A stretch of 64,000 nt of DNA from an uncultured Clostridia bacterium (GCA_947591785.1 CANQDK010000002.1:2510-66509), one strand, 5' to 3'; positions 1-53,200 are shown, counted from the stretch's first letter. Notes: generated by a model not told the origin, from the letters alone. A program made the numbers and translations.

Positions 1-266
1 GCTCCACGAACAGCAAGACTTGTAAGTCCCTCGTCTTCCAAAAATTTTGCTTCAGTTTTTCCTCCAAGTTCAGAAGATTTTTGTTGTTCTGTTGTGCCAT
101 TAGCCCAAACTATCTGAGCCTCTCCTGTATAAATAAATTCTCTTCCAACCAGCCCATTTGCATTTGTGCTTCTCCAATTAGCATACCACATTCCTGCGAA
201 AAAGCCACCAATTAGAACCCCACAAATAACCACTATTAATATTATTGATTTTAAAACTTTTCCCAT
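1..266 (-). CDS. Membrane-anchored exported protein, paralog of 524..1042 (3' end outside window)
   Basis: Hand translation from ATG at 266: MGKVLKSIILIVVICGVLIGGFFAGMWYANW...QIVWANGTTEQQKSSELGGKTE..., open to the window edge. It aligns with MGKILKSFLLIVSFILAVGAGFGAGW...YVWAKSATEADKANVGG of the neighbour. GGAGGT RBS at 272-277. Not in the ORF track. Confidence 0.85.
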   Translation of the reverse strand, partial: MGKVLKSIILIVVICGVLIGGFFAGMWYANWRSTNANGLVGREFIYTGEAQIVWANGTTEQQKSSELGGKTEAKFLEDEGLTSLAVRG

Positions 267-283
267 TTCTTACCTCCGAGTTC

Positions 284-311
284 ATGATATCACGGGGGGG
301 GGATTTGTCAA
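284..311 (-). promoter_or_regulatory. sigmaA promoter with a C9 tract in a 16-bp spacer
   Basis: Minus strand reads TTGACA-AAT-CCCCCCCCC-GTGA-TATCAT, with an extended -10 TG. G9 at 294-302 on the + strand. Confidence 0.8.
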
Positions 312-470
312 TTAATTTAGCAATTTTTTTACTTTTGACAAAAATTTGTCATTTTCCACTATTCTTATATAAATATAAATTTAATAAATAATTTACATAT
401 TAGAAATTTGCTAAAAAATCTGTTAGACAAAAAGTTTATTTCTCACATATTTCACTAACATAACACACTT

Positions 471-505
471 AAAAAAAAGTTTGTTTCAATCTTGAAACAA
501 ACTTT
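471..505 (-). terminator. Intrinsic terminator after the 172-aa gene
   Basis: Perfect inverted repeat AAAGTTTGTTTCAA-tc-TTGAAACAAACTTT (476-505), followed by a U-run on the minus strand. Confidence 0.75.
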
Positions 506-523
506 ATATTTTCCATTATTATA

Positions 524-1042
524 TTAAACAGCTTTAAAGACTACATAAACATCTGTGCACTTTTTATCTGCTTTTTCCCAATCTGCTCTACCTCTGAAAT
601 CTATAAAATTAAATCGTATCCCACCATTTATGATTTCAAATGTATATTTGGATGGAACACTATCTTCTATGGAATAAAGAGTTACAATCACCTTGCCTCT
701 ACTCTGTTCCCAATCTCCGGTTGCACGATATTGCTCTGGAATATCCAAAATTGAATTTGAATAACCTACTTCACCACCTTCCTTAAATGTCAAACTCATA
801 TTCTTATACATAGATTTCAAGCTTCCATCAAAAGTATCAAAAGACATCCCACCTACATTTGCTTTATCTGCTTCTGTTGCACTTTTAGCCCAAACATAAT
901 CTATAGTTCTAAAAGCATATGTTCCACTAATACTTTCTTGTGGTTCAATATAATCTTTAACAATCCAACCAGCACCAAAGCCAGCTCCTACTGCCAAAAT
1001 AAAACTTACTATTAGTAAAAAGGATTTTAGTATTTTCCCCAT
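524..1042 (-). CDS. N-terminally membrane-anchored protein with a predicted lipocalin-like beta-barrel, 172 aa
   Basis: N-terminal hydrophobic helix, then a GTY...LTFKEGG...GDWEQ...YTFEI...VVFK beta-strand pattern. GGAGGT RBS at 1048-1053. The fold is inferred from the pattern only. Confidence 0.75.
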   Translation of the reverse strand: MGKILKSFLLIVSFILAVGAGFGAGWIVKDYIEPQESISGTYAFRTIDYVWAKSATEADKANVGGMSFDTFDGSLKSMYKNMSLTFKEGGEVGYSNSILDIPEQYRATGDWEQSRGKVIVTLYSIEDSVPSKYTFEIINGGIRFNFIDFRGRADWEKADKKCTDVYVVFKAV

Positions 1043-1059
1043 TTTTTACCTCCGACCAT

Positions 1060-1088
1060 AGAATATCACGGGGGGGGGATTTTGTCAA
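1060..1088 (-). promoter_or_regulatory. sigmaA promoter with a C9 tract in a 17-bp spacer
   Basis: Minus strand reads TTGACA-AAAT-CCCCCCCCC-GTGA-TATTCT. G9 at 1070-1078 on the + strand. Near copy of 284-311. Confidence 0.8.
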
Positions 1089-1343
1089 TTAATTTCGCGA
1101 TATTTTTTATTTTTTGCAAAAATTGTCAATTTTTTTCACTTTTTGCTATTTTTTATCACTTTTTTATATTACTATATAATAAATTAATAAATAAATCACA
1201 TATAAATATGAAATGCAACTTAACGCGAAGCGTAACAGATTGACATAGAATGGCTTAATTTAATTGAAAAAAATTAGAATTTTAATATTTGATTCAAGAT
1301 TGTTAAAAATTGATTTTTAATGCAAAAATATCAAAAATTTTTA

Positions 1344-1913: not shown

Positions 1914-2367
1914 TCTAATATAATGTAACAAATTTACAAAAATATTTTTATAATGCCCTAAACTTTTTTAATCTATAAAAATTCCAAAAGCTAAAAAACT
2001 ATTAAAAATTAATTAAAATTAAATTATAAAAAATATTAAAAAATTACATAAAAATATGTAAAAATTATTAAAAATAAAAAATATATTTAAAATTATAAAA
2101 AAAATACTAAAAATAATATTTATTTTTTAATTTTTTATTTATTTTCATTTATTTTCATTTATTTTATTCCCCTTATTTTTATTATAAATAAATCAAATTT
2201 AAATTCATTTTTTTTGCAATTTTTTAGATTAATTTTATTAAACAAAAAATATGTATTTTATATGTTATATTATATATAATAAATTTATATAAATATATCC
2301 TATTTTTATTTTGAAATTGTCTTGGTTTTGTGCTAAAATAATTTTGAAATTTGAGAGAGGTGTTTTT

Positions 2368-5300
2368 ATGAGAAGAACAAATTTCTTATTTAAAAATGTT
2401 TTCGCGATTTTTCTTTCACTCTGTTTCCTTACACTTGGAATCACTGCTTTATTATACAAACAAGATAGTGTGAGTTACGCTGAAAACGCACAATCTGAAA
2501 CTTTAACAAACAACAAACTTCATGAAACTTTTTCAAAGCAGGAAAAGATTTATTCTGATGGAAATTGGGTGGACAACCCCGCTTCCTTTATTGATGACGA
2601 TGTTTTTGTTTTCGTTCGCAATACAGAAGACCCAACAAAACCAAACCAGCTGGAGCTTTCCTTGAAAACGAACGGAGCAATGAAAGGATATGAAGATAAT
2701 GTTTACAACTTTGTTTATTATCCTGATGTTACAAACCCTGATTCAAATTTGTTTTATTTTTACGATGTGTCAAACGTTTCTCTTACAATTAACGGTGTTG
2801 ACCAACAGGAGAACTTTTCTCGGGAGCACAAAGAATTCAGGACATTCAGTTCTTCTCGATTTCCAAATTATCTCGACGGACGACAGCCAAACACATTCAA
2901 AATGGTTCTTGGAAACTCAAACACAGAAAGTTATGAATATAAAATCACTGATGAAAATGGCCGTTTAAATAAAGAAGGAGTTTATCATTTAAACATTCAG
3001 TTAATTTTGTATACATGCCATAATGGTAGAACAGATGCTCAGGAAGAAGAGAGTGACTTTGACCCATCTATCCCTGTTGAAATTGATTACACATTCTTTG
3101 TTGTTGACGAAACAAACTATTTCTCTCAAAACAAACCAATCATAACTAACGGAGCTTTCGACAGTCAACTTAATATCTCTGGACTTCAAGAACCTGCTTA
3201 TTATTTTTACAGCAACTATTCATCTAAGAAGTCTGACAGCATTCAAGAAGAAAATTCCATTCCATATATTCAATACGACAGTCGTAGATTTGAAATTGAA
3301 ATAAAGAAGGAAGTCCCTGGAGAAACAGTAATTCATAATATGAGCTTGAAATTCAATACAGATATTGACGATTGTAAAGAAAAACCTGTTCTGCTTGAAC
3401 AAGAAAAACTTGTTGAGTGGATTATGTATTCCAACAATTTTGTAAGGCTTTACTTCACAGACATTGGAAAATACACCATAAAATTTAAGGCAATTCATGT
3501 TATTGGCTCAAACGAAACTTCTTTAAAGAAATATGAGATTGAAGGTTTAACAAAAAAATCTCGTGAAATCCTTGTTTTTATGTTCGGTTATCAAGCAACC
3601 TATGTTGACTATGATTCTCCTGCTGATGAGAACAACACTCGCCCAACAAAAGATTTAAAAACACTAAATCTATTTAACGAAGATGGCAGACCTCTGGAAA
3701 ACGGAACTTTTTCTGAAAGTGCCGATATAACCAGTAAATTTTTAAACTCAAACAATGATTATAAACAAGCAAACGACCCAACTTCGTTCACCTTGTCCAA
3801 TATTCTTGAATTTTTAAATAAACAAGTTGCTGTGGAATCTCAATTTGTTTATGAAAATATACCAATTTCAACAAATCAAGTTCCAATAAGAATGATTACT
3901 AATGCCAGATTGGTAAACAACGCAACAAATCATAGTTATGTTTTGTCAACAAGAGAATTGGCTGGTTCAAAACTTGCAAAAGACGATGATGATAACACCT
4001 TGCGACTTCAAGGGGAAGACCTTTATATTAAAGATTTTGACACAATAACAGAAAGTGGCACAGGAAAATATATTTACATAATCCCATACACTTTTGAAAA
4101 TTTCTATGAAAATTACACATCGCCTCCCGCTCTTTCAAAAATTTTCTATCAAATTTTCTTCTTTGAAATTGAAAACACGCTTCCAAAAATTGATATAAAA
4201 ACTGTTTCTGGAAAAAGAGTGAATGATGGCGACTTTGTCAACGAAGATGTTGTCATTCTTGACACAACAAAAGATGAACTTTACAACAAAGATGTGACTG
4301 TTCAAATTTATGCTTACGACTATGTAAACAACACCTATCTTGATGAATTTTTTGGCGAAAGAGGAAAATCTCTGGAAGTTCGCAGTGCAGAAACTGGCAA
4401 TGAAGAACATAAATTAATCCTTAAGAAAAATGAGAACGCAAAATACACTATAAGATTATACACAACTTCTTCAATGCCTTCTGACACAAGAATTTCAAGC
4501 AATACAGGATTTTTCCGTCAAAGAACATTCACGATTGACTCCATGGAAATCACTGGCCTTGAAGCAAGAACGGTTGAAGAGACTTCTTCAAACTATGTTG
4601 TTCTTGACACACTGCCAACAGACAGAATATTCACAAATCAAAGCATTATCCTTTCTTGGGATAATAAACTTAGCAATGCAACAACAACGGCTTATTATAG
4701 ATACTTCCCATTTGTTGATGAACAATATTACAACACAACAAACCTTTCAGGGCTTCTTGACAGTTTACTGGAAGATAATGAATCTTTTCACTATTTGCCA
4801 ATAAACAAAGTTTTGAATATGTCAACAACAAACAATGATTGGGTGCCTTACAAAGGGAACACAAAATATGAACTCCAAAACGAAATAGGCACTGAATTTG
4901 TTTTGTCTGATTCTGGATTATATCTTGTTGATGTCTATGACCAAGCTGGAAATCATAAACTTAACGTATTTATTGTTGACGACACAAAACCTATTTTTGC
5001 AATAAAAGATGAAGAGAACGGTTATTATCTTCCAAGTGCGAACACCCCAATTGACAGAGATTCCACACTTTATTGGGGAACTCATAAACTTATTTATATT
5101 GCAAACTTCACAACATCATTCTTTGCTAACTCAATTGAAGACCCTTCTTCAGTCACAACAGAAATGCTCGAAGCAGACACTTATAATTTTTACAAAAACT
5201 ATAACAAACAAACCAGTCGCGAAATATATGAACTGCTCTATCAAAAATTGTTCCGCTCAAACTATTTTAAAAATGTGACAGTTTCCTCAAGCATAGTAAA

Positions 5301-8300
5301 AGATGAAGGTTCAACATTCATCAATTCTTACAGCGGTTTATATGTTGCTGTTCCAATAAATAATGTTGTATATTTCATCGATAATGACAATCAAAATCAC
5401 ACAAGATTAGTTGATTCATATAAAAAATCATTTGTCGCTGAAAAAAGATATAATTTTAAGATTTGGATTCGTGATTATTCAAACACAACTGGTTATAGTG
5501 CAAGCGAAAACATTCTTTACACTCAATTTTATAGTGCTACGCAAGCGATTTCAATAAGTTTTGATACATCAGAATTCAAAATTATTTATAAAAACAATGA
5601 CACTCCTGTCGCCCTTGATTCTGTTATAACAGAAAGCGGAGTTGACGAAGATGACCCTGCAAAAACTTGGATGACAACCTATATTGGACCTATTGGAGTC
5701 AAGAAAATCCTTTATATTTCATTTAAGCCTGTCACAAAATTTTCAGAAGAAGATAAAAGAACTGAAGTTGAAAGTGTCAATATGAAATATTGGGCTTACA
5801 TTCCAACATCTGAAAACAAGACAATCCAAACAGGTTCTTCTTCCACTGAAAGAGCATTTCATTACTACACACTTTCTTCAACACCAGAAGAGCAAAGTTT
5901 TGCATTTAACGCAACGGAAGATGTTTTTGAAGCTCCAATTCGTTCAAGTGCGAACTACACTGCTCCAGGGAAATATGAGATAACAAGAACTTATAAAATT
6001 GGAAGCAACTACACTTTCAACGACAAAGATTCATATAAATTCACTTATGTCTTTTATGTTGACCATTTTGGTATTGTTACAAGTGCCGAATCATATAATG
6101 ATGGCCCATTGGAAAGTTTAGTCGGTGGAGATATTTTTGTTGCAAGTTATGATAACAAAATAACAACCGATTTGGTGGTAACCTTCCCAAACAGTGAAGA
6201 AGGAAACACTGATGGAACATCAACTTACAACAATGATGTCAACAATCTTAGACCAGTCATAACAACAAACAAATTGCCAGTTAATGTTTATGTTCCACAG
6301 TTCAAATTTACAAAATATGTCCTTAAAGATTCAAACGATGCTGGTTATAGTTTTAAAGTTGAAAACAATTCAGATGTAAACAATTTTAAAAGCGATGCTG
6401 ACAATAAAATTGTAGTTCAGGAATTTGCTTTATATGCGGAGATTTATAGAGGCGGATTATTGCAACAAAACCTTATCGCAAAGACAAATGAAAGCAATGC
6501 GATAATAACAAATGAAAAAGGAAATCCTATTGAAAATCCTGCAGTTGCAAATAATGGATTTTTAAAGTTTTATTCAACAACTGGTGCTCAAGATTTTGGG
6601 CCAATCACCTCTCCTGGAAGTTATTATGTGAAAATATATCAAAACAGATTTGGAACACATTTTAATGACAATACTGAAACAGGCTTCAGCTATGACCAAT
6701 CTTTCGTTTTCCAATTTGATATAACTTCATCAACTCCTGATTTCGATGTGCAAGCAAAGAATGGCGAATCGTTAAATGCACGCGAAGAAAATGGTATTAT
6801 GACCTACTACACAAATCAAAGTGAAGTGACTTTAACTTGGAACGCTTCTCCAAACAAATACATGGCAGAAATAGACAAAGACGCAATTTCCTTTACTGTT
6901 GACAATGTTATCACAACAACAAGTGAAACAGATGGAGGAAAGAGATTCTGGAGTGACGAGCCAACTCTTCAAAACAATTCAACATGGGCAGGAATTTTAG
7001 GTTTCACAGAGCAAAAACTCAACATTTATAAAAATGGTGGCGAAGTTTTAATCACAATGCAATATCAAAATCATGACACTGCAAAAGACGCAAATGGAAG
7101 AGATTTATATAACAAAATCACAAAACGCATAAAGATTGACCTATCCGCACCTAGTGATAATGTTGAAAATCTTGTTGATAATTCACTAAACAGAAACATG
7201 ATTCCAACAATGACAAGAAATGCTTTGCGTGATTATAAAACCGCAAACGGACAGCATGCAACATCACTTGATGTGACATCATATAACACTAGCAATAAAA
7301 CGGACTCAGTTTTCGCATATTATTCTTACACCGTGCCTGCAACATATTTAGAGAAATTGAAAACATCACAAGATTATATAACTTATATTCGTGATTTCAA
7401 CAACACAAAATATGACAACAATTACGAACAAGAAGTTGATGCAACAGCACCTTTAATTAATGGTTATAACAAAATTGATGCTTTTGACAAACTTGAAGAA
7501 GGGCATTACTACGAAGTAGTTGAAACAGACCTTGCAGGAAATAGAGCAATTTACACTATCTATATCTCATCACGTGCAGATGAAAACATCAAATTATTCT
7601 CCTACACTGTTCCAGCAGACAGCACAGAAGGCGAGCCAACACAAACATTAACAGAAAAATTCTATACAATCAAAGATTTTAATCTCGTTTCAAGCAGAGC
7701 TGGAGCTATCAACAACATCTATGCACACACAGGATTTAAACTTGAAGACATAAATTTCTTTGGTGATGTTTGGGCTCAAATGCTTATAAACACCTTTGAT
7801 GAAAACGGACGACCAATCACACGAATAGTTCTTTCAACACCAAAAGGTTACCGAGAGTATGTTGGTTCAAAAGACACATTGATTTCAGTTTCATCTCTTG
7901 TTCCATCAAATTTTGATTCTCACAAAAAAATGTGTTTCTCAATTTATGACAGACAAACAGCAAGAATGATTGACTTCTATCTCAACATAAGCGACATTCC
8001 TTTAACAGCACAATTAACAGACCAACAAGAACGAGAATTTATTCGTTTTGCAAAAGTCACCGATGCGGAAATTCAAAGCACCACATCTCCAAGTTTATAT
8101 CTCACTCACCTGAGAATCAGCAGAAAAACATCTTCAGGAAATGAAATTTTGTTTGAACAAGAAAACCAACTTGGCTATATGGACATTTGGCACTCAGATG
8201 AGCAACAAAACATTTTGGTTGATTCAAATGGTTTGACATTAAATTTTGAACTGAATCCAAACAAGGAATTTTCTCCAAACACCTGGATAACATATGATTT

Positions 8301-10896
8301 TTGGGACAATTATGGACAACATTATAGAAAAATTCACATTTATCGTGAAGCAGTTATTGACCCAGACAGAGAAATAACTTCAAAAGACGACACTTATGAC
8401 ATTTACTACTATCTAAACGAGGCAGAAGGAAGATTCTATTACATCACACAAGACAATTTGCAATACACCTACAACCGAGAGAAATTTTCACTAGTTTATG
8501 CAGAGATTATAAATGGCACTGAAAATGAAGATAGTCAAAATGTGAATATGAGCGTTCCAGAAACCAATAGAGATGGAACATCAACGGTAACATTCTCAGC
8601 AAACAAGGTTTCGGATTATGACATCACAGTTGTAATAAAACTATACGAATTTGATGGCGTTGAAACTGGAGCTTGGGTTGAAAACATTTATTTCAAACTA
8701 TACAACAAACTCCCAGTGAGAAACATTAGCGAAACAGCAACAAATAAGAAAAATGAATTTAAACTTACAGATGCAAACAATAAAAACATTACTCTTGATG
8801 TTTTAAACGACCAAGGTTCAAATGATATGGGCTACTATTCTGAAGTTCGTGTTCAATACAACCTTGATGAAACAGAAAATTCAATTATTCCACCTGTCAG
8901 ATTTTCAATCAGCACGGATAGAGAAAATTGGAAACCAATCGCTTCGGGAACAAGAATCAGAAGCACAACAAACGAAATGCAAAAATATTTCTTAAAGATA
9001 TGGTATGATGAGCAATGGCTCAAACAATGGCCTGAGAATAAAAAAGCAAACTCCGAATATGTGTTTGGAATCGTTCCTGAAAGCCAAATCCTAGAATTTA
9101 ACCTAACCTCCCTTGCAGTGACATATTGGGTAGAGAAAACAGTTGATGGTGTGACAACCATAGTTGACCGAGCAAAACAACCATTCAGAGCAGACGATGG
9201 TTCTCTATATTCAAATCACTATATTGTCAACCTTCACTATGACGATCGTAAATCAGTTCAAGTGCATGTAAACAATGAACAATCCTTAATTGCGTATGAA
9301 ACTGAAGATAGATGGGATAGCCCAGATGGACTTGTAACAAGCAAAAAATGGATAATAAGAACAAGTGACCCAGATGTTAAACCAAAGTTTGAAACAGAAA
9401 TAATTATCACATACATTCCATATGTAAGCAATTTTGTTAATGAATTCTTTGCATACGGAATAAGAAAAAGTGCCAACTTTGCTGACCCCGAACTAAAAAT
9501 GACAAAAGACACTCTTGTAGTTTCACAAGAAAACCTTGATAAAGTTCAGTTGCAGTGGTCTAAGTATTTTGGAATCCCTGAAAATGAAATAACCTTGCTT
9601 GTTGAAAAAGACGGAGTTGAATTCACCCCAACGATTTACTCCAAGAAAGAAGATGGAAAAGATTATTTCTACACAAACTTAAATTATTCTGGAAAATATT
9701 CTCTATCTCTTAAAGATTCCGCTGGAAATATGCAACGCTTTGGCGATGGACAAACAGAAAAGTTCACATATATATTCCTTAAAGATGTTCCTTTCACAGT
9801 GACATACACAAATCCACTCACAGGAGAACAGGAAACATCGTTGCCAATCAAACAAGCGGTTTATAACGGAAGTGTTACAATAAACATCGATCAATCGACT
9901 TTAACTGATTTTTACACCTTGCAAGGCCGCCCAGTTCTTTACTATGCAGATGAAGAAAATCCTCAAAACTCACACTATCTTGTAAAGAGAAATGGTGTGG
10001 AATATGAAAGAGAAGATTTCCGCTCATCAAATGCGAAATATGAGTTTAACTTACCTGGATTTTATGAGATAACATTCCTTGCAACAAGCAATACTGGTGA
10101 TGGACAAATAAGACAAGAAACATATCAATTTTCAATAATCAATCCGAACGAAAACAAAGTTTCTTATGTAGTAAACAGATATGGAAATTATTATGTTGAA
10201 CAAGTTCTTAGAGTAATAAGAGATGAAGGTTCGGATAAGGAATTTGAAGACATAACAAGCACCTTAGTAAAAACAATTGACGTAGAAACAATAACAAAAA
10301 CAATTCGAGAGTATGTTGTTGATTCAAATGGACATGGAAGTTATGTTTCAACACGAAAAACCTATCTCACATCATTGCCGATTTCATTCTTAGATGAAAA
10401 AACTGGAGCAGGAACTTATTATATCACAGTAAACACAGGTGACAATCAGTTTGCACAAGATTCTCAACATCAACGCTACACCTTCAAACTGAGCATAAAA
10501 GTTGGTTCTGCGTCAATAAGCATTTCTGCAAATGAAGGGAAAGAAACAACTGACACAATCACGGTAAGATATAATCAAGAAAAACTTTACGATGAAATGG
10601 GCGAATGTTCACTGAGAATTTTGAGAAAATTGGACAATGGCTCTTACAGCTACTTTGGCGAAGAAATTCAAATTAATGCAGAAAGCACTGGGGAATTGAG
10701 TTTGTCAATAACATCTGCAGGAACATATTATATACAAATTCTTTCTCCAAGCAACACACTCCTCTTCACATATAAAGTAATCAAGAAAGATCCAATGAAT
10801 GCTGCATCAATAGTTGCCATAGTGATTTCTGCTCTTGTGTTAATTGCAATCATCGTGCTTATTGTAAAACTTAGAAAGAGAATTTCTGTTAAATAA
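2368..10896 (+). CDS. Giant (about 2840 aa) secreted surface protein with Ig-like repeats and a C-terminal TM anchor
   Basis: ATG at 2368 after GAGAGAGG, signal peptide, recurring GxYx5-6DxAGN motifs (SGLYLVDVYDQAGN, GHYYEVVETDLAGN, SGKYSLSLKDSAGN), and a C-terminal hydrophobic helix plus KLRKRISVK. Confidence 0.85.
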   Translation: MRRTNFLFKNVFAIFLSLCFLTLGITALLYKQDSVSYAENAQSETLTNNKLHETFSKQEKIYSDGNWVDNPASFIDDDVFVFVRNTEDPTKPNQLELSLKTNGAMKGYEDNVYNFVYYPDVTNPDSNLFYFYDVSNVSLTINGVDQQENFSREHKEFRTFSSSRFPNYLDGRQPNTFKMVLGNSNTESYEYKITDENGRLNKEGVYHLNIQLILYTCHNGRTDAQEEESDFDPSIPVEIDYTFFVVDETNYFSQNKPIITNGAFDSQLNISGLQEPAYYFYSNYSSKKSDSIQEENSIPYIQYDSRRFEIEIKKEVPGETVIHNMSLKFNTDIDDCKEKPVLLEQEKLVEWIMYSNNFVRLYFTDIGKYTIKFKAIHVIGSNETSLKKYEIEGLTKKSREILVFMFGYQATYVDYDSPADENNTRPTKDLKTLNLFNEDGRPLENGTFSESADITSKFLNSNNDYKQANDPTSFTLSNILEFLNKQVAVESQFVYENIPISTNQVPIRMITNARLVNNATNHSYVLSTRELAGSKLAKDDDDNTLRLQGEDLYIKDFDTITESGTGKYIYIIPYTFENFYENYTSPPALSKIFYQIFFFEIENTLPKIDIKTVSGKRVNDGDFVNEDVVILDTTKDELYNKDVTVQIYAYDYVNNTYLDEFFGERGKSLEVRSAETGNEEHKLILKKNENAKYTIRLYTTSSMPSDTRISSNTGFFRQRTFTIDSMEITGLEARTVEETSSNYVVLDTLPTDRIFTNQSIILSWDNKLSNATTTAYYRYFPFVDEQYYNTTNLSGLLDSLLEDNESFHYLPINKVLNMSTTNNDWVPYKGNTKYELQNEIGTEFVLSDSGLYLVDVYDQAGNHKLNVFIVDDTKPIFAIKDEENGYYLPSANTPIDRDSTLYWGTHKLIYIANFTTSFFANSIEDPSSVTTEMLEADTYNFYKNYNKQTSREIYELLYQKLFRSNYFKNVTVSSSIVKDEGSTFINSYSGLYVAVPINNVVYFIDNDNQNHTRLVDSYKKSFVAEKRYNFKIWIRDYSNTTGYSASENILYTQFYSATQAISISFDTSEFKIIYKNNDTPVALDSVITESGVDEDDPAKTWMTTYIGPIGVKKILYISFKPVTKFSEEDKRTEVESVNMKYWAYIPTSENKTIQTGSSSTERAFHYYTLSSTPEEQSFAFNATEDVFEAPIRSSANYTAPGKYEITRTYKIGSNYTFNDKDSYKFTYVFYVDHFGIVTSAESYNDGPLESLVGGDIFVASYDNKITTDLVVTFPNSEEGNTDGTSTYNNDVNNLRPVITTNKLPVNVYVPQFKFTKYVLKDSNDAGYSFKVENNSDVNNFKSDADNKIVVQEFALYAEIYRGGLLQQNLIAKTNESNAIITNEKGNPIENPAVANNGFLKFYSTTGAQDFGPITSPGSYYVKIYQNRFGTHFNDNTETGFSYDQSFVFQFDITSSTPDFDVQAKNGESLNAREENGIMTYYTNQSEVTLTWNASPNKYMAEIDKDAISFTVDNVITTTSETDGGKRFWSDEPTLQNNSTWAGILGFTEQKLNIYKNGGEVLITMQYQNHDTAKDANGRDLYNKITKRIKIDLSAPSDNVENLVDNSLNRNMIPTMTRNALRDYKTANGQHATSLDVTSYNTSNKTDSVFAYYSYTVPATYLEKLKTSQDYITYIRDFNNTKYDNNYEQEVDATAPLINGYNKIDAFDKLEEGHYYEVVETDLAGNRAIYTIYISSRADENIKLFSYTVPADSTEGEPTQTLTEKFYTIKDFNLVSSRAGAINNIYAHTGFKLEDINFFGDVWAQMLINTFDENGRPITRIVLSTPKGYREYVGSKDTLISVSSLVPSNFDSHKKMCFSIYDRQTARMIDFYLNISDIPLTAQLTDQQEREFIRFAKVTDAEIQSTTSPSLYLTHLRISRKTSSGNEILFEQENQLGYMDIWHSDEQQNILVDSNGLTLNFELNPNKEFSPNTWITYDFWDNYGQHYRKIHIYREAVIDPDREITSKDDTYDIYYYLNEAEGRFYYITQDNLQYTYNREKFSLVYAEIINGTENEDSQNVNMSVPETNRDGTSTVTFSANKVSDYDITVVIKLYEFDGVETGAWVENIYFKLYNKLPVRNISETATNKKNEFKLTDANNKNITLDVLNDQGSNDMGYYSEVRVQYNLDETENSIIPPVRFSISTDRENWKPIASGTRIRSTTNEMQKYFLKIWYDEQWLKQWPENKKANSEYVFGIVPESQILEFNLTSLAVTYWVEKTVDGVTTIVDRAKQPFRADDGSLYSNHYIVNLHYDDRKSVQVHVNNEQSLIAYETEDRWDSPDGLVTSKKWIIRTSDPDVKPKFETEIIITYIPYVSNFVNEFFAYGIRKSANFADPELKMTKDTLVVSQENLDKVQLQWSKYFGIPENEITLLVEKDGVEFTPTIYSKKEDGKDYFYTNLNYSGKYSLSLKDSAGNMQRFGDGQTEKFTYIFLKDVPFTVTYTNPLTGEQETSLPIKQAVYNGSVTINIDQSTLTDFYTLQGRPVLYYADEENPQNSHYLVKRNGVEYEREDFRSSNAKYEFNLPGFYEITFLATSNTGDGQIRQETYQFSIINPNENKVSYVVNRYGNYYVEQVLRVIRDEGSDKEFEDITSTLVKTIDVETITKTIREYVVDSNGHGSYVSTRKTYLTSLPISFLDEKTGAGTYYITVNTGDNQFAQDSQHQRYTFKLSIKVGSASISISANEGKETTDTITVRYNQEKLYDEMGECSLRILRKLDNGSYSYFGEEIQINAESTGELSLSITSAGTYYIQILSPSNTLLFTYKVIKKDPMNAASIVAIVISALVLIAIIVLIVKLRKRISVK

Positions 10897-11224: not shown

Positions 11225-14200
11225 TTATTTCTTCAATTCTTTGTCAAGTTTAACTTTTGAAACAATGAAGTAGATGATTACGCCTGCAAGGACAACAACT
11301 GAAACAACAATCAAAATTGTTCCAACAGTCTGGTAAACCATTTGAGCATCTTGAGTTTTTTCTTCAACAGTAAACTTCTTCTCATAGGTTGTCTTGTTTC
11401 CAGCAGTATCTGTCACAGTGAAAGTCAAAGTGTAGTTACCTGTTTGTTTGAGTTCAAAAGTCAAAATCTTTGAATCAAGATTATCTTCTTCTTCAATCTT
11501 ATCATCACCAAGATAAAGAGTAACTTCTGGAACTGCATCAATCTTAACACCACTGTCATAAACTTCAATGTCGTTCAAATTGATTTCTAAACGTTTCTTT
11601 CCACTAACTTCTTCAAGTTTGTAAGTTTCTTTAACGATGTTTTCTTTAAGGAACTTGAATTCTGGTGGAATAGCATCGCCGACAACAACTTTATAATCTT
11701 TGCTTGTTCTATGGCCGCTCTTGTCATAAACAGTATAGTTAATTGTGTAAGTAGCGTCTTTATCAGTTGTAAATTCATAAACCTTCTTGTCGAAAGAACC
11801 TTTATATTCCATTGGATTAACAGTTTTGCCATCTGCAAGTTTTCCAGAAACAGTTACCAATGAACGTGTCCAATCAATATCTTCATCAGGACATTCAATT
11901 CCATAGATGTCAAGTTTCATATCATATTTTTCTGGATTTTTCAAGTCATCAATAGAGATATTTTCAACATATTCATATTCTCTCAAAGTTGGAGCAATTG
12001 TGTCTTGAGCAGTAACATAATAAACATCACTTGTTCTTTGGAAGAACTGAATATCTCTAAACATTTGTTGAAGATCCTCTTCGGTTAATTCGTAGGTTGA
12101 TAAGCTTCCAGTTACAATAGGCTCATTTGTGCTGTCCTTAGCACTGAATTTATCACCTTCTCTAACAACGAAAATTTCTACAGCAGGTTTTGCAGAATCT
12201 GTAAACACAACTTTAAATGTGTTTTCATCAATTGTGTAGATTTTATGTTTTGTAAGTTTTTCGTTTGTAAAGTAACCACCATCCTCTGTATAGGTTACAT
12301 TTTTAAAGTCGTAAACAGTGACGTTTACAGTGTATTGAATTTCATATTGTTTTTCTTCTTTTGGTGTAAAAGAGCCAACAATTCCTTGATTTGTATAATA
12401 ATCGTAAGCCCTACCATTGCTGTCAACACCAAGAATCACATAATCTGTGCTGTTATATCTTGATTTTTCATCTGAACTTGCAGTTTCTTTCTTATAAAGT
12501 TCACTGTTAGCCTTGAAGATGTCGTATGTGACGCTGTTTTTAATTGAATATGTCACTGTTGGATCTGGAATAAAAACGGTGTCTTTATAAAGTTCTACAG
12601 ATTGTGGAATAGAAATGCTTCCTTTCTCAATTTGAATTGAAGAACCTAAAACTCTTGGTTTAACATAATAATTTGCGAAATAAACAATTGTGTTTTTCTT
12701 GCTATCAATGATAGAAATTCTTGCTTGATAATTTCCAGATGCTGATGCATTAAATTTTCCAGCATACAATTTGAGTTCACCAGATTTGGATTGTTCCCAA
12801 ACACGACGACTTAAAATTTTTGTGTCAATAACATTATCAAATTCTGTTTCAGTTCCGTCTTTTTCAATGTGGAACAACTTAACTTCATAATCAACAAATC
12901 CAATCGCATCGTCTTGAACTGTTATTGTTGGAAGTTCAATATCTTCGTCTTGAAGATATTCAACATCTTCCATACCTGTTGCTGAGATGAATTTTGGAGC
13001 AGCATTATCTTCTGAGTTGAGAATTGAGATTGTTTCAGCATAAATTCCAACATTTCCACAATCATCATAAACATAAGAGAAGATTTGAAGTGAAAGAGCA
13101 TCTTTGCATTCGCTTAAATCAATACTATAAGAAGAAGCGGTTGAATCTGTTAAATCAATATAACCATCTTCAGTTTCAACTTCGGCTGCTACTTCATGGT
13201 AAGCCTTATAAATGTCTGTCAAGAACATTCCTTTTGACATTTTTTCATTTATATCTGTCCAAAGTGAAGAAAGGTTGATTCCTTTAAGATTTGTCCCATC
13301 TTCGTCTGTGTTTTTACCCTTAACTTTGATAGGTTTATTTGAACCGTCCAAGAAACGATAAAGTGTTACAACTTGCATTTCTGCATCACGATTGTCAGTT
13401 GCAGTTGGAACATTGAAAGTCACAACTGAATTTGGAAGATAAGTTTTTTGAAGTGTTGTGGAGAATCTGATTTCTGGTGCTTGTTCTTCTGTTTCAAGAA
13501 GCACAATGCTTATGTCATAAGGAACATCTGTTGTGTTTCCTGCAGCATCAGTTGCGATGTAATGGATATAATAATTATCTCTTCCTGTTCCATCGTCTGC
13601 TTCGTCAGCACCAAATGTTTTGTCTGTGTCAATATAAGCAAAACCTTTTGCTAAAACTTCAGGAGCTTTTGATTTAAGCCAAGCAATTGCTGCATTTTTC
13701 TTTGCTTCAGCAACAGCTTCATCATGTCCATCTCCTGCTTCAATACCATCTCCGGCATTCTTCACACTGTCAATGTCATCAAAAATTTGATTTCCTTCAG
13801 CATTGAAGATTTCATAGATTTTTTCTGCGTTTGCATTATCAACAACAATCAAATAATTGTGTTTTTGAAGCCATTGTAACATATCTTTGTCTGTTTTGAT
13901 TTTATCGTCAACAGTTGTGCCGCTAAGAGATTTATCTTCAGCAACAGCTTTTCTGACAAGGAAATTGTTTGTCAAGAAATTTTGATAAGCTTTATAAGCA
14001 GATGAATCGCGATAATTGAAAACAAGGTTGTATTTGTTGTATTCGTTGATTTCAAGAATTGTTTCTGCACCACGCATAATTTTTCTTGTCAATCTAACCT
14101 TACTATTTTCGTTTTCAGCAGGAACACCTTGAATTGCTTCGCTTGTCTTTGTGACATTATCATTCATTCCAATAGCATAAACAATAACACCATTTGATGT

Positions 14201-15700
14201 TGCATAAGTTTTTAATTTTTCGTGTTCGTCTTTATGCTCTTTATCTTCATAATCTTCAACATCAGCATATTGTGATGCATCATAAAGAACAACTGTTGGG
14301 TCTTTTTCATCTTTCACATCATCAAATTTGTAAACGCCTTCAGGTGTTTCATATTCATGTCCATAGAAGTCAGTGATTTTGTAGATAAATGTGTAGTATC
14401 CATCTTTGAGTGGAGTGAATTTTGTTGGGTCTGCAAGATAATAGTTCCCTTCGCCATCTTCTTCAAGAATATCAACTTCATTTCCGTCTTCATCGGTTAC
14501 AGGTGGATAATCTTCTGGTGTGATTTGAGTATAACTTGAATCTCCATATTTTTCTTTAAAACGAACTTGAACTTTGTAAGAAACTGCAATTTCTTCTCCT
14601 GCAGGTGTTGCATCTTTTGGTGTTACACCAATAGCAGTTGGAAGAGTGCTTTCTTCACCACGTTTTCCATTATCAACCCAAGATTTTGACAATTCAAGTT
14701 TGATATCGTCAAAGTTTTTGTAGTATGGGTTGTTTTCATCATTATAAACCTTAAATGATTTTGTTGTTGATGTCACAAAATATGGTTCACCTAATGATTC
14801 TCCAGTTTTAGCACGAGTATAATAAGAATATTTTATTGTGTAAGTGCCTGCACCAAATTTTACTGCTGCTTCGGCATCATCTTCAAATTTTGAACCATCA
14901 ATATAAAGACGAGTGCCTTCTGTTTCTTTTGAAATTTCAAAAGAAGAATTGTTTACACCACCTGTTGCTGTGACAACAACAAAGTCTGCCTCATTTGCTG
15001 CTTTTGCTTCATCCAATGATTTATAAAGTTTCACAGCGATTTCTTTGCCATTTTCTCCTGTAACTTTTGGAGTTGGAAGATATACATTTTTTGGCTTTTC
15101 AACGTCTTCAACTTTTTCTTTTGCTCCCTTAACAGAAAGGTCAACAACATCTGGGAAGATGACATTTGGGTCTGTTAAATCAAATGAAGCCGAAGAAAGA
15201 ACACTCTTAACTTTAAGCTGATGACTGTTTGTCAAAATTGTTTTTGTTTCATCATCTTGAGCGTAATATGAATAAGAATATGTCACGGTGTAAGTTCCAA
15301 TTCTATCAGCAGTAAATTTTTCACCGCCATTTGAATTGACTTCTTTTAAAACACCTTTATCATCAACTTCATCATTGAAAGAAACTTTAACACTTGATGC
15401 AGTGATAACATATCCATCTTCATTTTTATCAGAGTCTGTTTCATTTATAGATGAATCTCCAACTTTTAAGCTTGTGTTTCCGCCAATATAAGCATCAGGA
15501 ATTGTGTATTCTCCACCTCTATTGACAACAGTTTCAACTTCTTTCTTGCCATCACCAATTGTCAAGAAATTATAATCTGTGTCTGTGTCGCTTACTGCAA
15601 GAGCAACAAGTTCCTTAACAGGAAAACAAAGTGCGGTTAGCATAAAAGCAACAACCATCACGATTCCTTTAAAAAGCATTGAATGTTTTTTCACTTTCAT
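11225..15700 (-). CDS. 1491-aa acidic surface protein with Ig-like repeats and a C-terminal TM anchor
   Basis: Signal peptide, repeated DxxxP domain starts (EDNAAPKF, QDTIAPTL, GDAIPPEF) and YxxxYxxxDxxGN/H ends (YIATDAAGN, YTVYDKSGH, FTVTDTAGN), a TM helix plus KVKLDKELKK, and an AGGAG RBS. Confidence 0.85.
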   Translation of the reverse strand: MKVKKHSMLFKGIVMVVAFMLTALCFPVKELVALAVSDTDTDYNFLTIGDGKKEVETVVNRGGEYTIPDAYIGGNTSLKVGDSSINETDSDKNEDGYVITASSVKVSFNDEVDDKGVLKEVNSNGGEKFTADRIGTYTVTYSYSYYAQDDETKTILTNSHQLKVKSVLSSASFDLTDPNVIFPDVVDLSVKGAKEKVEDVEKPKNVYLPTPKVTGENGKEIAVKLYKSLDEAKAANEADFVVVTATGGVNNSSFEISKETEGTRLYIDGSKFEDDAEAAVKFGAGTYTIKYSYYTRAKTGESLGEPYFVTSTTKSFKVYNDENNPYYKNFDDIKLELSKSWVDNGKRGEESTLPTAIGVTPKDATPAGEEIAVSYKVQVRFKEKYGDSSYTQITPEDYPPVTDEDGNEVDILEEDGEGNYYLADPTKFTPLKDGYYTFIYKITDFYGHEYETPEGVYKFDDVKDEKDPTVVLYDASQYADVEDYEDKEHKDEHEKLKTYATSNGVIVYAIGMNDNVTKTSEAIQGVPAENENSKVRLTRKIMRGAETILEINEYNKYNLVFNYRDSSAYKAYQNFLTNNFLVRKAVAEDKSLSGTTVDDKIKTDKDMLQWLQKHNYLIVVDNANAEKIYEIFNAEGNQIFDDIDSVKNAGDGIEAGDGHDEAVAEAKKNAAIAWLKSKAPEVLAKGFAYIDTDKTFGADEADDGTGRDNYYIHYIATDAAGNTTDVPYDISIVLLETEEQAPEIRFSTTLQKTYLPNSVVTFNVPTATDNRDAEMQVVTLYRFLDGSNKPIKVKGKNTDEDGTNLKGINLSSLWTDINEKMSKGMFLTDIYKAYHEVAAEVETEDGYIDLTDSTASSYSIDLSECKDALSLQIFSYVYDDCGNVGIYAETISILNSEDNAAPKFISATGMEDVEYLQDEDIELPTITVQDDAIGFVDYEVKLFHIEKDGTETEFDNVIDTKILSRRVWEQSKSGELKLYAGKFNASASGNYQARISIIDSKKNTIVYFANYYVKPRVLGSSIQIEKGSISIPQSVELYKDTVFIPDPTVTYSIKNSVTYDIFKANSELYKKETASSDEKSRYNSTDYVILGVDSNGRAYDYYTNQGIVGSFTPKEEKQYEIQYTVNVTVYDFKNVTYTEDGGYFTNEKLTKHKIYTIDENTFKVVFTDSAKPAVEIFVVREGDKFSAKDSTNEPIVTGSLSTYELTEEDLQQMFRDIQFFQRTSDVYYVTAQDTIAPTLREYEYVENISIDDLKNPEKYDMKLDIYGIECPDEDIDWTRSLVTVSGKLADGKTVNPMEYKGSFDKKVYEFTTDKDATYTINYTVYDKSGHRTSKDYKVVVGDAIPPEFKFLKENIVKETYKLEEVSGKKRLEINLNDIEVYDSGVKIDAVPEVTLYLGDDKIEEEDNLDSKILTFELKQTGNYTLTFTVTDTAGNKTTYEKKFTVEEKTQDAQMVYQTVGTILIVVSVVVLAGVIIYFIVSKVKLDKELKK

Positions 15701-32996: not shown

Positions 32997-33493
32997 TTAT
33001 AGTTTTTTAATCAAACTTTCTTTGCCAAAATTTTTACAACACAATTTTTCAAAAACAGCCTTTGGCATTGGCTTTTTTGAGTGCGATGCGACAGCATCTA
33101 GCACTATTTTTGGTTGAATTTTATTGTCAAAAAGTTGAAAACAAATTGCGAGAACACAAGAATCATAATCAAGCCCACAGATAAAAACTTCATCTCCTTT
33201 ATTGAAAAGTTTTAGAAAATCATTTTCTCCCCCCCCGCTAAGGAATATGAAGTTTTTTCCACAATTTTTGCATTTTTGGGCAAATTTAATGCGATTTCAG
33301 TTTCATCATCTGTCAAAAAACGCTGATAATTCAAGTATTCCACAAATTGACTTTCTTTTCTATTGACAAACTTTGTAGCAATAATTTGGTTAAAATTTCC
33401 ATTATCCACCAAATCTTGAATTTTGTTTGCCACAAAGCTGCAATTATCGTTCAAAAATCCTTTTTGAACATCTACAATCAAAAGTTTTTTCAT
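32997..33493 (-). pseudogene. Isochorismatase-family cysteine hydrolase, frameshifted at a G8 tract (candidate phase-variable gene)
   Basis: The 5' part has LLIVDVQKGF...EKTSYS. After G8 (C8 at 33229-33236) another frame reads ENDFLKLFNKGDEVFICGLDYDSCVLAICFQLFD...LIKKL* to 32997. G9 would give an intact 165-aa protein. Confidence 0.85.
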
Positions 33494-50215: not shown

Positions 50216-53200
50216 TTACTGTTTTGAAAGTTTTTCTCTCTCTTTTTTCTTCTTTCTGTTCACGACAATTAAAACAACAATAATTAAGATTAACAGCAAC
50301 AAAATTATAAGAATCAACCACAGATACCAATACGATGTTTTTCCTAAAATTATCGTTGCTTTTGAGCCAATAACACCAAACAATCCATTATATCTGATTG
50401 GATTATATTCCATTGCCAGCCCAATGCCTGAAATCGAATGGTCATTGAAGTTGAAATAGCCATTGAAGAATTGTTCTCTTGTGCCAATTGGTGTCCAGAA
50501 CTCTTCTCCTAAATCAATGTCATTCACAACCACCCAATAGCATTCATTATATTTCACTTCATTTGAATTTGACATGCCTTTATTACACAATGCCATCATC
50601 TGAGCAAGTTCTTTCTCAGAACTAATCTTATATGGATTTTTATATGTTCCTTCGCCCTTAAACAATATTTCTTCTTCATCATTAAATTCATTTTCCCACA
50701 ATAATCTTGTGAATTGAATGTGAACATATATCGTTCCTTGAATTCCATTTGCTTGAATAAATTCTCTTGTAAGAATGATTTTGCCGTCTTCTGTGAAGAA
50801 CTGACTCATATCCGTGAAATTTTGCCCCATGTTTGAGATTGTGACACTGCTGATTGCATATCTTTCATTGCATACAGTGTCAAAGGCAACCTGCCCTTTG
50901 TTGCTTACTGAGAAGAATTTGGTCATTTCTCCATTGAATAATGCCCCACCAGCAACATTGACATCATTTCCATCCAGTGCATCTTGTATAATATCTTTAT
51001 CAACAAAACTGTTTGTTATATAGATTGCAAAAGATGTGTTTTCAAAGATTGGAACAATTTCAACAACCTTTTCGTGTGCATTGTTTGTTTCGTTTGCATG
51101 TTCCGCAGTGATTTTAAGTGAGAAGAGATGTCTATTGATGTTTTTGTCATAACCCAAATATGAAACATCTTTTCTTTCACCCCAGTTGACAGAATATCCT
51201 TCATCAACAGTCAGAGCGAAAGTGACATCACAGCCAACTCTAACATCCACTCTAATACGTTCTTTCACGAAAGCCAGTCCAGTGCCAGAACCTAAAACAT
51301 AAGAATAATTTTCGCCATTAATAACTTGTGAATACATTTCTCTGATTTGACCAAATTTTGTATCGTAGTCATTAAAGCCGAGAGTTACCTTATCACCTTC
51401 CAAATTAAGAACCAGTGATGCTCTGCGAACAATTGCACGCATTTGCAATGGATTGTCTAACGAAGTGACGCCACCATCTGAAAGAATATTCCAATTCAAG
51501 AAAGTATAACCCTGTTTTAATTTTGCAGTAAGGGTGAATTTTTCGCCAGTCATAACAAAGCCTTTCTTTAACAGCGTCTTCCCTTGGGAGTCGGTGACTG
51601 GTTCTTGTTCTATGGCAATTTCTTCAACTTCACCGCCAACAATTCTTATGTCAACTTGTGCAAAATATATGATTTGAACCTGACATTCAACATAGTTATC
51701 TTTATTGTTTGTTGACCATGGAAGATTTTCTGCAAATGATTCAACGTCAGCAACCCAATCTCCATTGCCATTTCTTTGTTTGATTACAAATTTATAGAAT
51801 TGATAGCCATTGATTTTTGGAGCCGTGAAATAAATATCTGTGTTATACGAAACTTCCATATAATGTGGAGATGCTTCATAATACCAAGAATTTGTGTAAT
51901 CAACTCCACTTATAATTTCTTGTGCAGTATAGTTTAAACTCTCGCTTGGAACAATGCTAATGTTGATTCTTGTTTTTTGATATGATTGATATTGATAAAC
52001 AGAAATTTCAAAATTTCCCTCATCATCAATTTCAAGATTTTCGCTGTATTCAAACAAATTCGTAACTTTATTATAGACGTATCCATTCTCCAGCCACTTT
52101 CCAACCACATCTCCATTATAGTCGATGTATTGTTTTCCGCCTCCGTTTTGGCTGGTGAAATAGCCCATGAAAACATATCCCGATTTTCTTTGAACAAGAT
52201 TTAATCTACCATTAACATATTTTATAGAAGGATCTTCATGAATATTATTAGAATTCAATCTTGACAAATTAATTGATTCATTGAATGAAACATTTTCAAC
52301 ACGAGCAAGAGTCTTATCACCATTCTTAAACACGACTGTATATTTGCTTGAACCTAATGTGATGACAATATGGTTTCTTCCCAAGAATTCTTCAACGCCA
52401 CCGTTGATTCTGAATGTCACCTTGCCAACATAACCAGTTTCTTCGATTGAAAGCTCATGATATTCAATACTGTTCTTGTCAACAATTGAATATTCTTTCA
52501 GCTCACCTTTAACTTGATTGAAGTCAACAGTGAAACCTGCACGAACATAAGCAACAATATCGAAGTGGCTGTCTGTGTAAGCAAGAACAGAAAGTGCAGA
52601 ATAATCGCTTCCAGAAGTCCAAACTTTATGTTCATTTCCAAGTAATGGAATCACTTCAAAAGCCCCACCTTCTGCCTTGTCACCATTATTGTAGAAATCA
52701 AGGTCAATGATATTTAAAAGTGGTTTGAACACAACTGTCACATAAACATATTTACCACCAATAAGTTTGTCAATACAGAAAATGCTGTAATCCGCTGCTT
52801 CAAGAATTTTCGACACTTCTGGATTTTCAACACCTTCTTGTTGCATTGACAGAATTGCTTCAACTCTGTCAATAGTATATCCAGCTCTCTCTGTTTCAAC
52901 TTTTATGAAAACTTTACTTGATGTGTAAGCAATAATTGAAAATTGCTTTGTGTTGTCAGTTGGATATTCTTCATAATGAACCAAAGTTCCTTCAACATAG
53001 CCATATTTGTTGACCGTTTCACCTTCATTGTTTGTTAATTGAACTTTTCCAACATCAAGGTCCAATTCTCTAAAGCCTTCAACTTCAATGATTGTGTTGA
53101 CTTGAATTTGTGTTGCACGAGGAATCAAAACAACATAAATTGTATTGACACCCACACCAAATTCTCCATTCTTAATTTCAACAGAAATTTGACTTCCGCT

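Follow-up and report, generated by a model that had tools for sequence, protein, structure and literature searches.

Near the left edge of a 64-kb stretch of DNA from an uncultured gut Clostridia bacterium (G000:C2:2510-66509; the whole of these 64,000 nucleotides is referred to as the window), two genes, here termed A and B, lie in tandem on the minus strand, each behind a promoter that carries a tract of nine cytosines (C9). The source is a metagenome-assembled genome (MAG) of 1.196 Mb in 16 contigs with 32% G+C, and sequence words of the window were present in 8 rabbit-gut metagenome runs from 2 studies. An initial annotation of the window had described two tandem, N-terminally anchored paralogs, each with its own duplicated TTGACA-C9-GTGA block, and had interpreted them as a candidate array of phase-variable surface proteins. 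Paralogs and blocks were both seen when the sequence was read directly, and the locus comprises the following features (positions within the window).

1 to 266, minus strand: 5' part of gene A, ATG at 266-264; the whole gene encodes an N-terminal hydrophobic anchor and two copies of a ~135-amino-acid (aa) beta-rich domain
272 to 277, minus strand: Shine-Dalgarno sequence GGAGGT of gene A, 5 nt before the ATG, read from the sequence
284 to 311, minus strand: promoter A, with -35 TTGACA at 306-311, AAT at 303-305, C9 at 294-302 (G9 on the plus strand), GTGA at 290-293 and -10 TATCAT at 284-289; spacer of 16 bp
312 to 352, minus strand: conserved A/T-rich block 5' of promoter A, from the block alignment, holding the palindrome TGACAAATTTTTGTCA
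476 to 505, minus strand: strong intrinsic terminator of gene B, between genes B and A, with a 13-pair stem, a 4-nt loop and a T-run
524 to 1042, minus strand: gene B, 172 aa, encoding an N-terminal hydrophobic anchor (helix 2-27) and one copy of the beta-rich domain
1048 to 1053, minus strand: Shine-Dalgarno sequence GGAGGT of gene B, read from the sequence
1060 to 1088, minus strand: promoter B, with -35 TTGACA at 1083-1088, AAAT at 1079-1082, C9 at 1070-1078, GTGA at 1066-1069 and -10 TATTCT at 1060-1065; spacer of 17 bp
1089 to 1129, minus strand: conserved A/T-rich block 5' of promoter B, with a second TTGACA at 1124-1129, from the block alignment and promoter scan

Read 5' to 3', both cassettes share the layout TTGACA, AAT (A) or AAAT (B), C9, GTGA, TATCAT (A) or TATTCT (B), ~10 nt, GGAGGT, 5 nt and ATG, and in both the C9 tract sits wholly between the -35 and -10 hexamers. 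The spacers of 16 bp and 17 bp and the terminator between the cassettes, as initially annotated, were found again by direct reading and by a hairpin and promoter scan. A consensus promoter scan recovered both promoters (11/12 for A and 10/12 for B) with TG before the -10 hexamer in each. Aligned over 182 columns, the upstream blocks of A and B show 83% identity, and they hardly differ between about -45 and the start codon; for the proteins, identity is 33% in the first 84 residues (E = 2e-4), in agreement with the earlier statement that the promoters are better conserved than the proteins. Gene A is predicted to be insulated from gene B by the terminator at 505-476. In this A/T-rich window, G/C runs of at least 8 occur at only three places, as had been stated (294-302, 1070-1078 and 33229-33236), and C8+ patterns gave 5 overlapping matches versus a mean of 0.10 in 100 shuffles; since both C9 tracts are copies of one duplicated block, they do not represent independent chance events. 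The palindrome TGACAAATTTTTGTCA was rejected as a shared operator, with 7 loose matches genome-wide and none at the other poly-C promoters.

The start of gene A had been placed correctly, but not its extent of 1-266: the gene runs beyond the window (G000:C2:1867-2775, 302 aa). The array had also been suspected to continue leftwards, which proved not to be the case: past the gene A stop, the contig contains only a promoter-like stretch and then a 23S rRNA gene, of which the first 1183 positions are present before the sequence ends. This rRNA gene begins 670 nt past gene A (region G000:C2:1-1866) and has its own strong promoter-like site (TTGACA, 17 bp, TAGAAT). Neither a 16S nor a tRNA gene lies between gene A and the 23S gene, within which the contig ends, and the latter may be an unlinked 23S gene.

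Throughout the genome, 16 G/C runs of at least 7 were counted (one of 7, three of 8, twelve of 9 and none of 10 or more). Observed versus expected counts were 185 versus 188 for runs of 5, 5 versus 30 for runs of 6, 1 versus 4.9 for runs of 7, and 12 versus 0.13 for runs of 9, the last corresponding to a ~90-fold excess. Run lengths are thus bimodal, with the intermediate lengths purged and a distinct class of 8 to 9 kept. The genome search for TTGACA, 3 to 4 nt and a long C tract that the initial annotation had proposed yielded 4 of the 16 long tracts, all located 3-4 nt after a perfect TTGACA: those of A and B, a tract at C2:104188 preceding a 534-aa orphan, and one at C7:2460 preceding a signal-peptide-like open reading frame (ORF) downstream of metK. 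Among 49 perfect TTGACA-N13-21-TATAAT pairs in the same genome, spacers of 17 bp prevailed (27 pairs, compared to 8 with 18 bp and 4 with 16 bp), a preference that would fit the earlier notion of 17 bp as a high and 16 bp as a lower state.

Nine of the 16 tracts are located within genes or split them (C2:35738, C3:34041, C3:77010, C6:81715, C9:52821, C10:410, C10:32575, C11:6077 and C11:25311), invariably with G on the coding strand (9/9). In the assembly, the reading frame is cut short or divided at the tract in four of these genes, i.e., an Acyl_transf_3 gene (186 + 145 aa), an HD-domain gene, one NUDIX gene and an isochorismatase-like ORF. The tract is in frame in the other five, which encode a second NUDIX protein, a dCMP-deaminase-type protein, a serine hydrolase, a GT4 glycosyltransferase and an unknown protein. 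Instead of being dead, the four broken genes are candidates for contingency loci in coding sequence. The small isochorismatase/cysteine-hydrolase-like gene lies in the window (33212-33493, minus strand) between dnaK-like and dnaJ-like ORFs; its frame stops soon past the G8 tract at 33229-33236, and the rest of the protein is found in another frame. Missing mismatch repair was ruled out as a cause of tract instability, since MutS_V and MutL domains are present in the genome.

The promoter arrangement is not confined to this genome. TTGACA-N2-5-C8+ was found in 34 of 61 sampled genomes of the genus, compared to 2 matches in total for the reversed control pattern, and in 5 of 79 other genomes of the order; the G-strand form, TTGACA-N2-5-G8+, occurred in 14 of the 61 genus genomes. 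From 30 genomes we read 33 poly-C sites, namely, the first-listed site per genome together with any others within its ±1.5-kb locus. Tracts were C8 at 11 sites, C9 at 20 and C10 at 2. A good -10 hexamer was present at 14-17 bp in 30 of the 33 (16 bp in 16, 15 bp in 5, 17 bp in 5 and 14 bp in 4), with 3 sites doubtful, and the assembled promoters average about one base below the 17-bp optimum. Most sites were followed by a Shine-Dalgarno sequence and an ORF. Among 24 downstream proteins scanned, 16 had no Pfam family, and the remainder included two ankyrin-repeat proteins, a BspA-type leucine-rich-repeat protein, an ABC transporter, a DUF4116 protein and RidA. In general, poly-C-promoter genes in the genus are mostly fast-evolving accessory genes and not uniformly genes for surface proteins.

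Comparison of homologous promoters from different species revealed differences in tract length. Between L014 and L017 (95% aa identity), the tract is C10 versus C8 and the spacer 17 versus 16 bp, and between L024 and L031 (48% aa identity), N4+C8 is replaced by N3+C9, with a spacer of 16 bp in both. In seven tandem arrays from other species, each gene had its own poly-C block in six; clear paralogy (38-63% identity) was evident in four, and the copies were unequal in tract length in three. At the locus L128 (G018:C1:21500-27000), near-identical poly-C promoter-plus-leader blocks (C8, C9 and C9) stand ahead of three essentially unrelated tandem ORFs, and from the sequences it looks as if the promoter module had been copied or homogenized independently of the genes. 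At least 10 poly-C promoter sites of the genus were located within ∼200 nt of a contig start (for example, G048:C12:4-21, G048:C21:4-21, G072:C22:68-85, G012:C87:82-99 and G003:C14:123-140); assemblies seem to break at such promoters through repeated blocks or through heterogeneity of tract length within the sample.

The long tracts also share a flank signature. Read on the C strand, 12 of the 16 long runs of the genome have G as their 3' neighbor, versus 8-12% for C runs of 1 to 5 in this CpG-poor genome, and 1 of 16 has G as its 5' neighbor. Genus-wide, exactly eight Cs followed by G gave 148 matches, versus 10 for the reversed pattern, and at poly-G promoter tracts C immediately precedes the tract in 28 of 32 sites. 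Since the bias is found in both promoter orientations and in coding tracts, it is not explained by the TG of the extended -10 element. A broader interpretation, which we put forward tentatively and regard as rather improbable, would be a lineage-wide phasome built from asymmetric A/T-Cn-G tracts (n = 8-10), with an unusual or dedicated property of replication or repair that creates or stabilizes this form, and with portable poly-C switch cassettes ahead of fast-evolving orphan genes. Under that interpretation, the L128 array would be one example of such cassettes, and genes A and B one such pair.

The beta-rich domain of ~135 aa is present twice in the protein of gene A and once in that of gene B, with ~25% identity between copies. 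As the initial annotation had suggested, we predicted structures. A single-sequence AlphaFold2 model of the gene B protein reached a mean predicted local distance difference test score (pLDDT) of 41.7, the helix at residues 2-27 (∼85) being its sole confident part, and a model from the 3-row domain alignment reached 50.3; the N-terminal helix could thus be assigned, but the remainder was too weak for a fold call. The confident N-terminal helix is the feature behind the putative designation as surface proteins. No lipobox was recognized: the N-terminal 30 residues of gene B lack Cys, and the VVIC-G of gene A is unlike the usual form. Both proteins are probably extracytoplasmic and would, by prediction, be exposed at the surface.

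Their suggested likeness to lipocalins remained a weak lead. Pfam gave no family match for either protein (the best for P0002 was DUF5640 at 13.9 bits versus a cutoff of 28.5, E = 0.05; for P0001 there was none), and Pfam lipocalin-like scores of the relatives P0004 and P0005 were likewise under threshold. A Foldseek search with the domain model found no match at E = 0.001 or better; the best were fatty acid-binding proteins at E = 0.01 or weaker, with a TM score of ∼0.45. Atlas neighbors with Lipocalin_4/DUF5004 scored 0.82-0.84, under the lead level of 0.9. From these low-confidence models, a lipocalin/calycin fold may be considered as a weak lead for the domain.

No relatives of P0002 were found in the GTDB species genomes and none of P0001 in 40 other genomes of the genus and order, and an index of 5.8 billion proteins returned only the query proteins themselves. 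A profile search of 1.84 billion representatives yielded three credible relatives, P0004 (3 repeats), P0005 (1 repeat) and P0008 (at least 4 repeats), and both window proteins matched P0005 directly (E = 1e-12 and 2e-7). The same search also matched P0003, P0006 (5892 aa) and P0007. P0003, a PKD-repeat protein, and P0007, a triple tandem of the heat-labile enterotoxin B chain (E = 5.5e-4), were rejected as chance or repeat-inflated matches; likeness to enterotoxin B was discarded as well, as the profile gave only cholera toxin B rows among PDB sequences (E = 0.26-0.66, not significant). A global alignment of the full-length relatives put the repeats out of register and was not used. Proteins A and B thus belong to a very small, near-orphan and fast-evolving family of membrane-anchored proteins with 1 to 4 repeats.

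We propose, with a probability of roughly 70%, that slipped-strand variation of promoter strength, of the porA/opc/vlp type, operates at A and B and makes the two cassettes vary independently. Several elements of the phase-variable promoter suggested in the initial annotation were observed: the anatomy of the promoters with their terminator, a bimodal distribution of tract lengths, the same design elsewhere in the genus, and homologous promoters whose tracts are of unequal length in different species. Each gene would be transcribed from its own sigma-A/sigma-70-type promoter, in which the C9 tract sets the distance between -35 and -10. By analogy with known switches, the tracts would be hypermutable in this organism, replication slippage adding or removing single Cs and moving the spacer among ~15-18 bp. 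The change in spacer length would in turn dial promoter strength in a heritable and reversible manner; because 17 bp is the preferred spacing in the genome, gene B as assembled (17 bp) would reach full or almost full expression, with gene A (16 bp) a step below. With the TG-extended -10 element, the promoter would probably act as a dimmer and not switch strictly on or off. Since a terminator separates the cassettes, expression of A would change without regard to that of B, so that cells of one clonal population would differ in their combination of the two proteins. The proteins would be exposed at the surface, and their variation may bring a benefit. The locus would represent one case of a genus-wide habit of placing C8-C10 tracts in promoter spacers and reading frames, and a switch from insertion to deletion bias near G9-G10, of the Campylobacter jejuni type, would explain the narrow range of 8-10.

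Several points weigh against a slippage-driven dimmer. Both tracts are exactly C9 in the assembly, assembled lengths at the 33 genus sites are confined to 8, 9 or 10, and the promoter, searched with a variable tract, gave 0 stretches in two scans of metagenome contigs. With both MutS and MutL present, slippage rates may be below those of Campylobacter, and the TG-extended -10 element may buffer changes in the spacer. The spacer measures 16 bp or less in 25 of the 33 assembled poly-C promoters and not the optimal 17 bp, which implies that the "low" state predominates, that consensus calling shortens tracts, or that C-rich spacers have another optimum. Nor is every homopolymer next to a promoter a switch, as a T-tract beside the vpma promoter of Mycoplasma agalactiae played no role (PMC2268961). 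Finally, the genes downstream of poly-C promoters in the genus do not all encode surface proteins, as illustrated by ankyrin-repeat proteins, RidA and the ABC transporter.

Some of these points would be accommodated if C9 were a fixed promoter element without a useful rate of variation, acting as a rigid G/C-rich spacer for strength or melting or as the binding site of a regulator. Such an element would fit the presence of C9 in both copies, the length of exactly 9 in 12 of the 16 long runs and the presence of mismatch repair genes; the conserved, palindrome-bearing upstream block suggests some conventional regulation too, and the M. agalactiae tract (PMC2268961) is a precedent for a promoter homopolymer that does not switch. 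However, the geometry is anything but fixed, as the distance from the -35 hexamer (2-5 nt), the tract length (8-10) and the strand (C or G) all vary. Moreover, tracts are found in reading frames as well, four of them breaking the gene, homologous promoters are separated by insertions or deletions in the tract, and the palindrome is not a recurrent operator. We therefore consider a fixed element rather unlikely. The flank signature raises a different question, namely, whether the tracts are by-products of lineage-specific mutation or repair that makes or preserves CnG, so that they slip but are incidental and unselected at A and B. That the preference for a 3' G is intrinsic to the strand, extends through the genus in both promoter orientations (148 versus 10 matches; 28/32 sites) and includes coding tracts would be expected of such a process, as would the fact that several tract-bearing genes encode ordinary small hydrolases. 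Mutation by itself would not readily account for 4 of 16 tracts falling exactly within the 16-19 bp that follow a perfect TTGACA, for good -10 hexamers at 14-17 bp in 30 of 33 genus sites, for tracts kept at homologous genes down to 48% protein identity or for the depletion of runs of 6 and 7. The placement and retention of tracts and this depletion point to selection on where tracts are kept, and we give the by-product explanation little credence.

An artifact of sequencing or assembly, which would have introduced spurious poly-G/C into metagenome contigs, has to be considered since the source is a MAG, in which consensus homopolymer lengths can err by one, and since, in other MAGs, several sites are found no more than 200 nt from the start of a contig. 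Yet the tracts have unique and functional-looking flanks, occur twice at the locus, at 16 places in the genome and in 34 of 61 independently assembled genomes, and words of the window were found in runs of two studies. An artifact is hence hardly conceivable.

Slippage at A and B would have its closest counterparts in three known systems. The vlp architecture consists of tandem genes with a homopolymer, in this case poly-A, in the promoter spacer and a conserved 5'/N-terminal block followed by a divergent mature protein. Like A and B, the vlp genes of Mycoplasma hyorhinis (and also maa2 of M. arthritidis and vmm of M. mycoides) are tandem genes with their own promoters and a homopolymer in each spacer. 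In vlp as at A and B, the block of promoter, leader and N-terminal targeting sequence is far more conserved than the mature protein, and independent, combinatorial switching would be possible. In contrast, the tract is poly-C here, gene B lacks a lipobox, no C-terminal tandem repeats were seen, and two members were found; the host belongs to a walled gut Clostridia lineage with MutS and MutL, and switching is predicted from sequence. In Neisseria, a poly-G tract between -35 and -10 of porA confers graded expression, and tracts are ~9-14 long. As at A and B, a G/C homopolymer determines the spacing of porA and opc, but each of these is a single gene with a longer tract in a proteobacterial pathogen, whereas A and B are duplicated cassettes with a TG-extended -10 element in an uncultured commensal of the Bacillota. 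C. jejuni, which is not known to possess MutS/MutL-type mismatch repair, has mostly intragenic tracts. Its tract set resembles that of the present genome in the genome-wide occurrence of G/C tracts, their modal length of 9, the G on the coding strand and genes both in and out of frame; here, however, a quarter of the tracts lie in promoter spacers and mismatch repair genes are present.

The published accounts describe the corresponding mechanisms. In mycoplasmas, vlp, maa2 and vmm are switched by insertions and deletions between the -35 and -10 hexamers (PMC2268961), and the opc poly-C tract sets promoter spacing and confers graded expression (PMC13742949). In C. jejuni, polyG/C tracts are most often 9 long and lie on the coding strand, insertions are favored at G8-9 and deletions at G10-11, and many tract genes are out of frame in any one genome (PMC3401435). 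By analogy, the function of the A/B promoters would be closest to the promoter-spacer switch of porA, opc and vlp, and the gene-family architecture closest to vlp, while the tract set resembles that of C. jejuni.

The window also contains three giant ORFs, at 2311-10896 (plus strand, 2861 aa), 11225-15700 (minus strand, 1491 aa) and 50216-63838 (minus strand, 4540 aa). The 2861-aa ORF has a signal-like N-terminal segment and a hydrophobic C-terminal segment.

Slipped-strand promoter switches are textbook knowledge for a few pathogens, such as Neisseria, Haemophilus, mycoplasmas and Campylobacter, and to our knowledge have been little considered in uncultured gut commensals. A literature search on Christensenell- bacteria with homopolymeric tracts returned nothing on phase variation, judged by title, and another on contingency loci in MAGs found no related report. 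The mechanism itself is already known, and the locus would add to it an uncultured gut Clostridia genus for which no such report was found; of note are its scale across the genus, the arrangement as tandem cassettes and the CnG signature. If slippage operates as proposed, a whole genus of gut Clostridia with reduced genomes would vary how strongly many of its orphan proteins, membrane-anchored in part, and small hydrolases are expressed. A gene with a frameshift at a G9 tract then need not be dead, which would change how single MAG consensus sequences are read and how strain-level heterogeneity in gut communities is interpreted, and tract lengths would provide simple sequence markers for tracking population bottlenecks in vivo.

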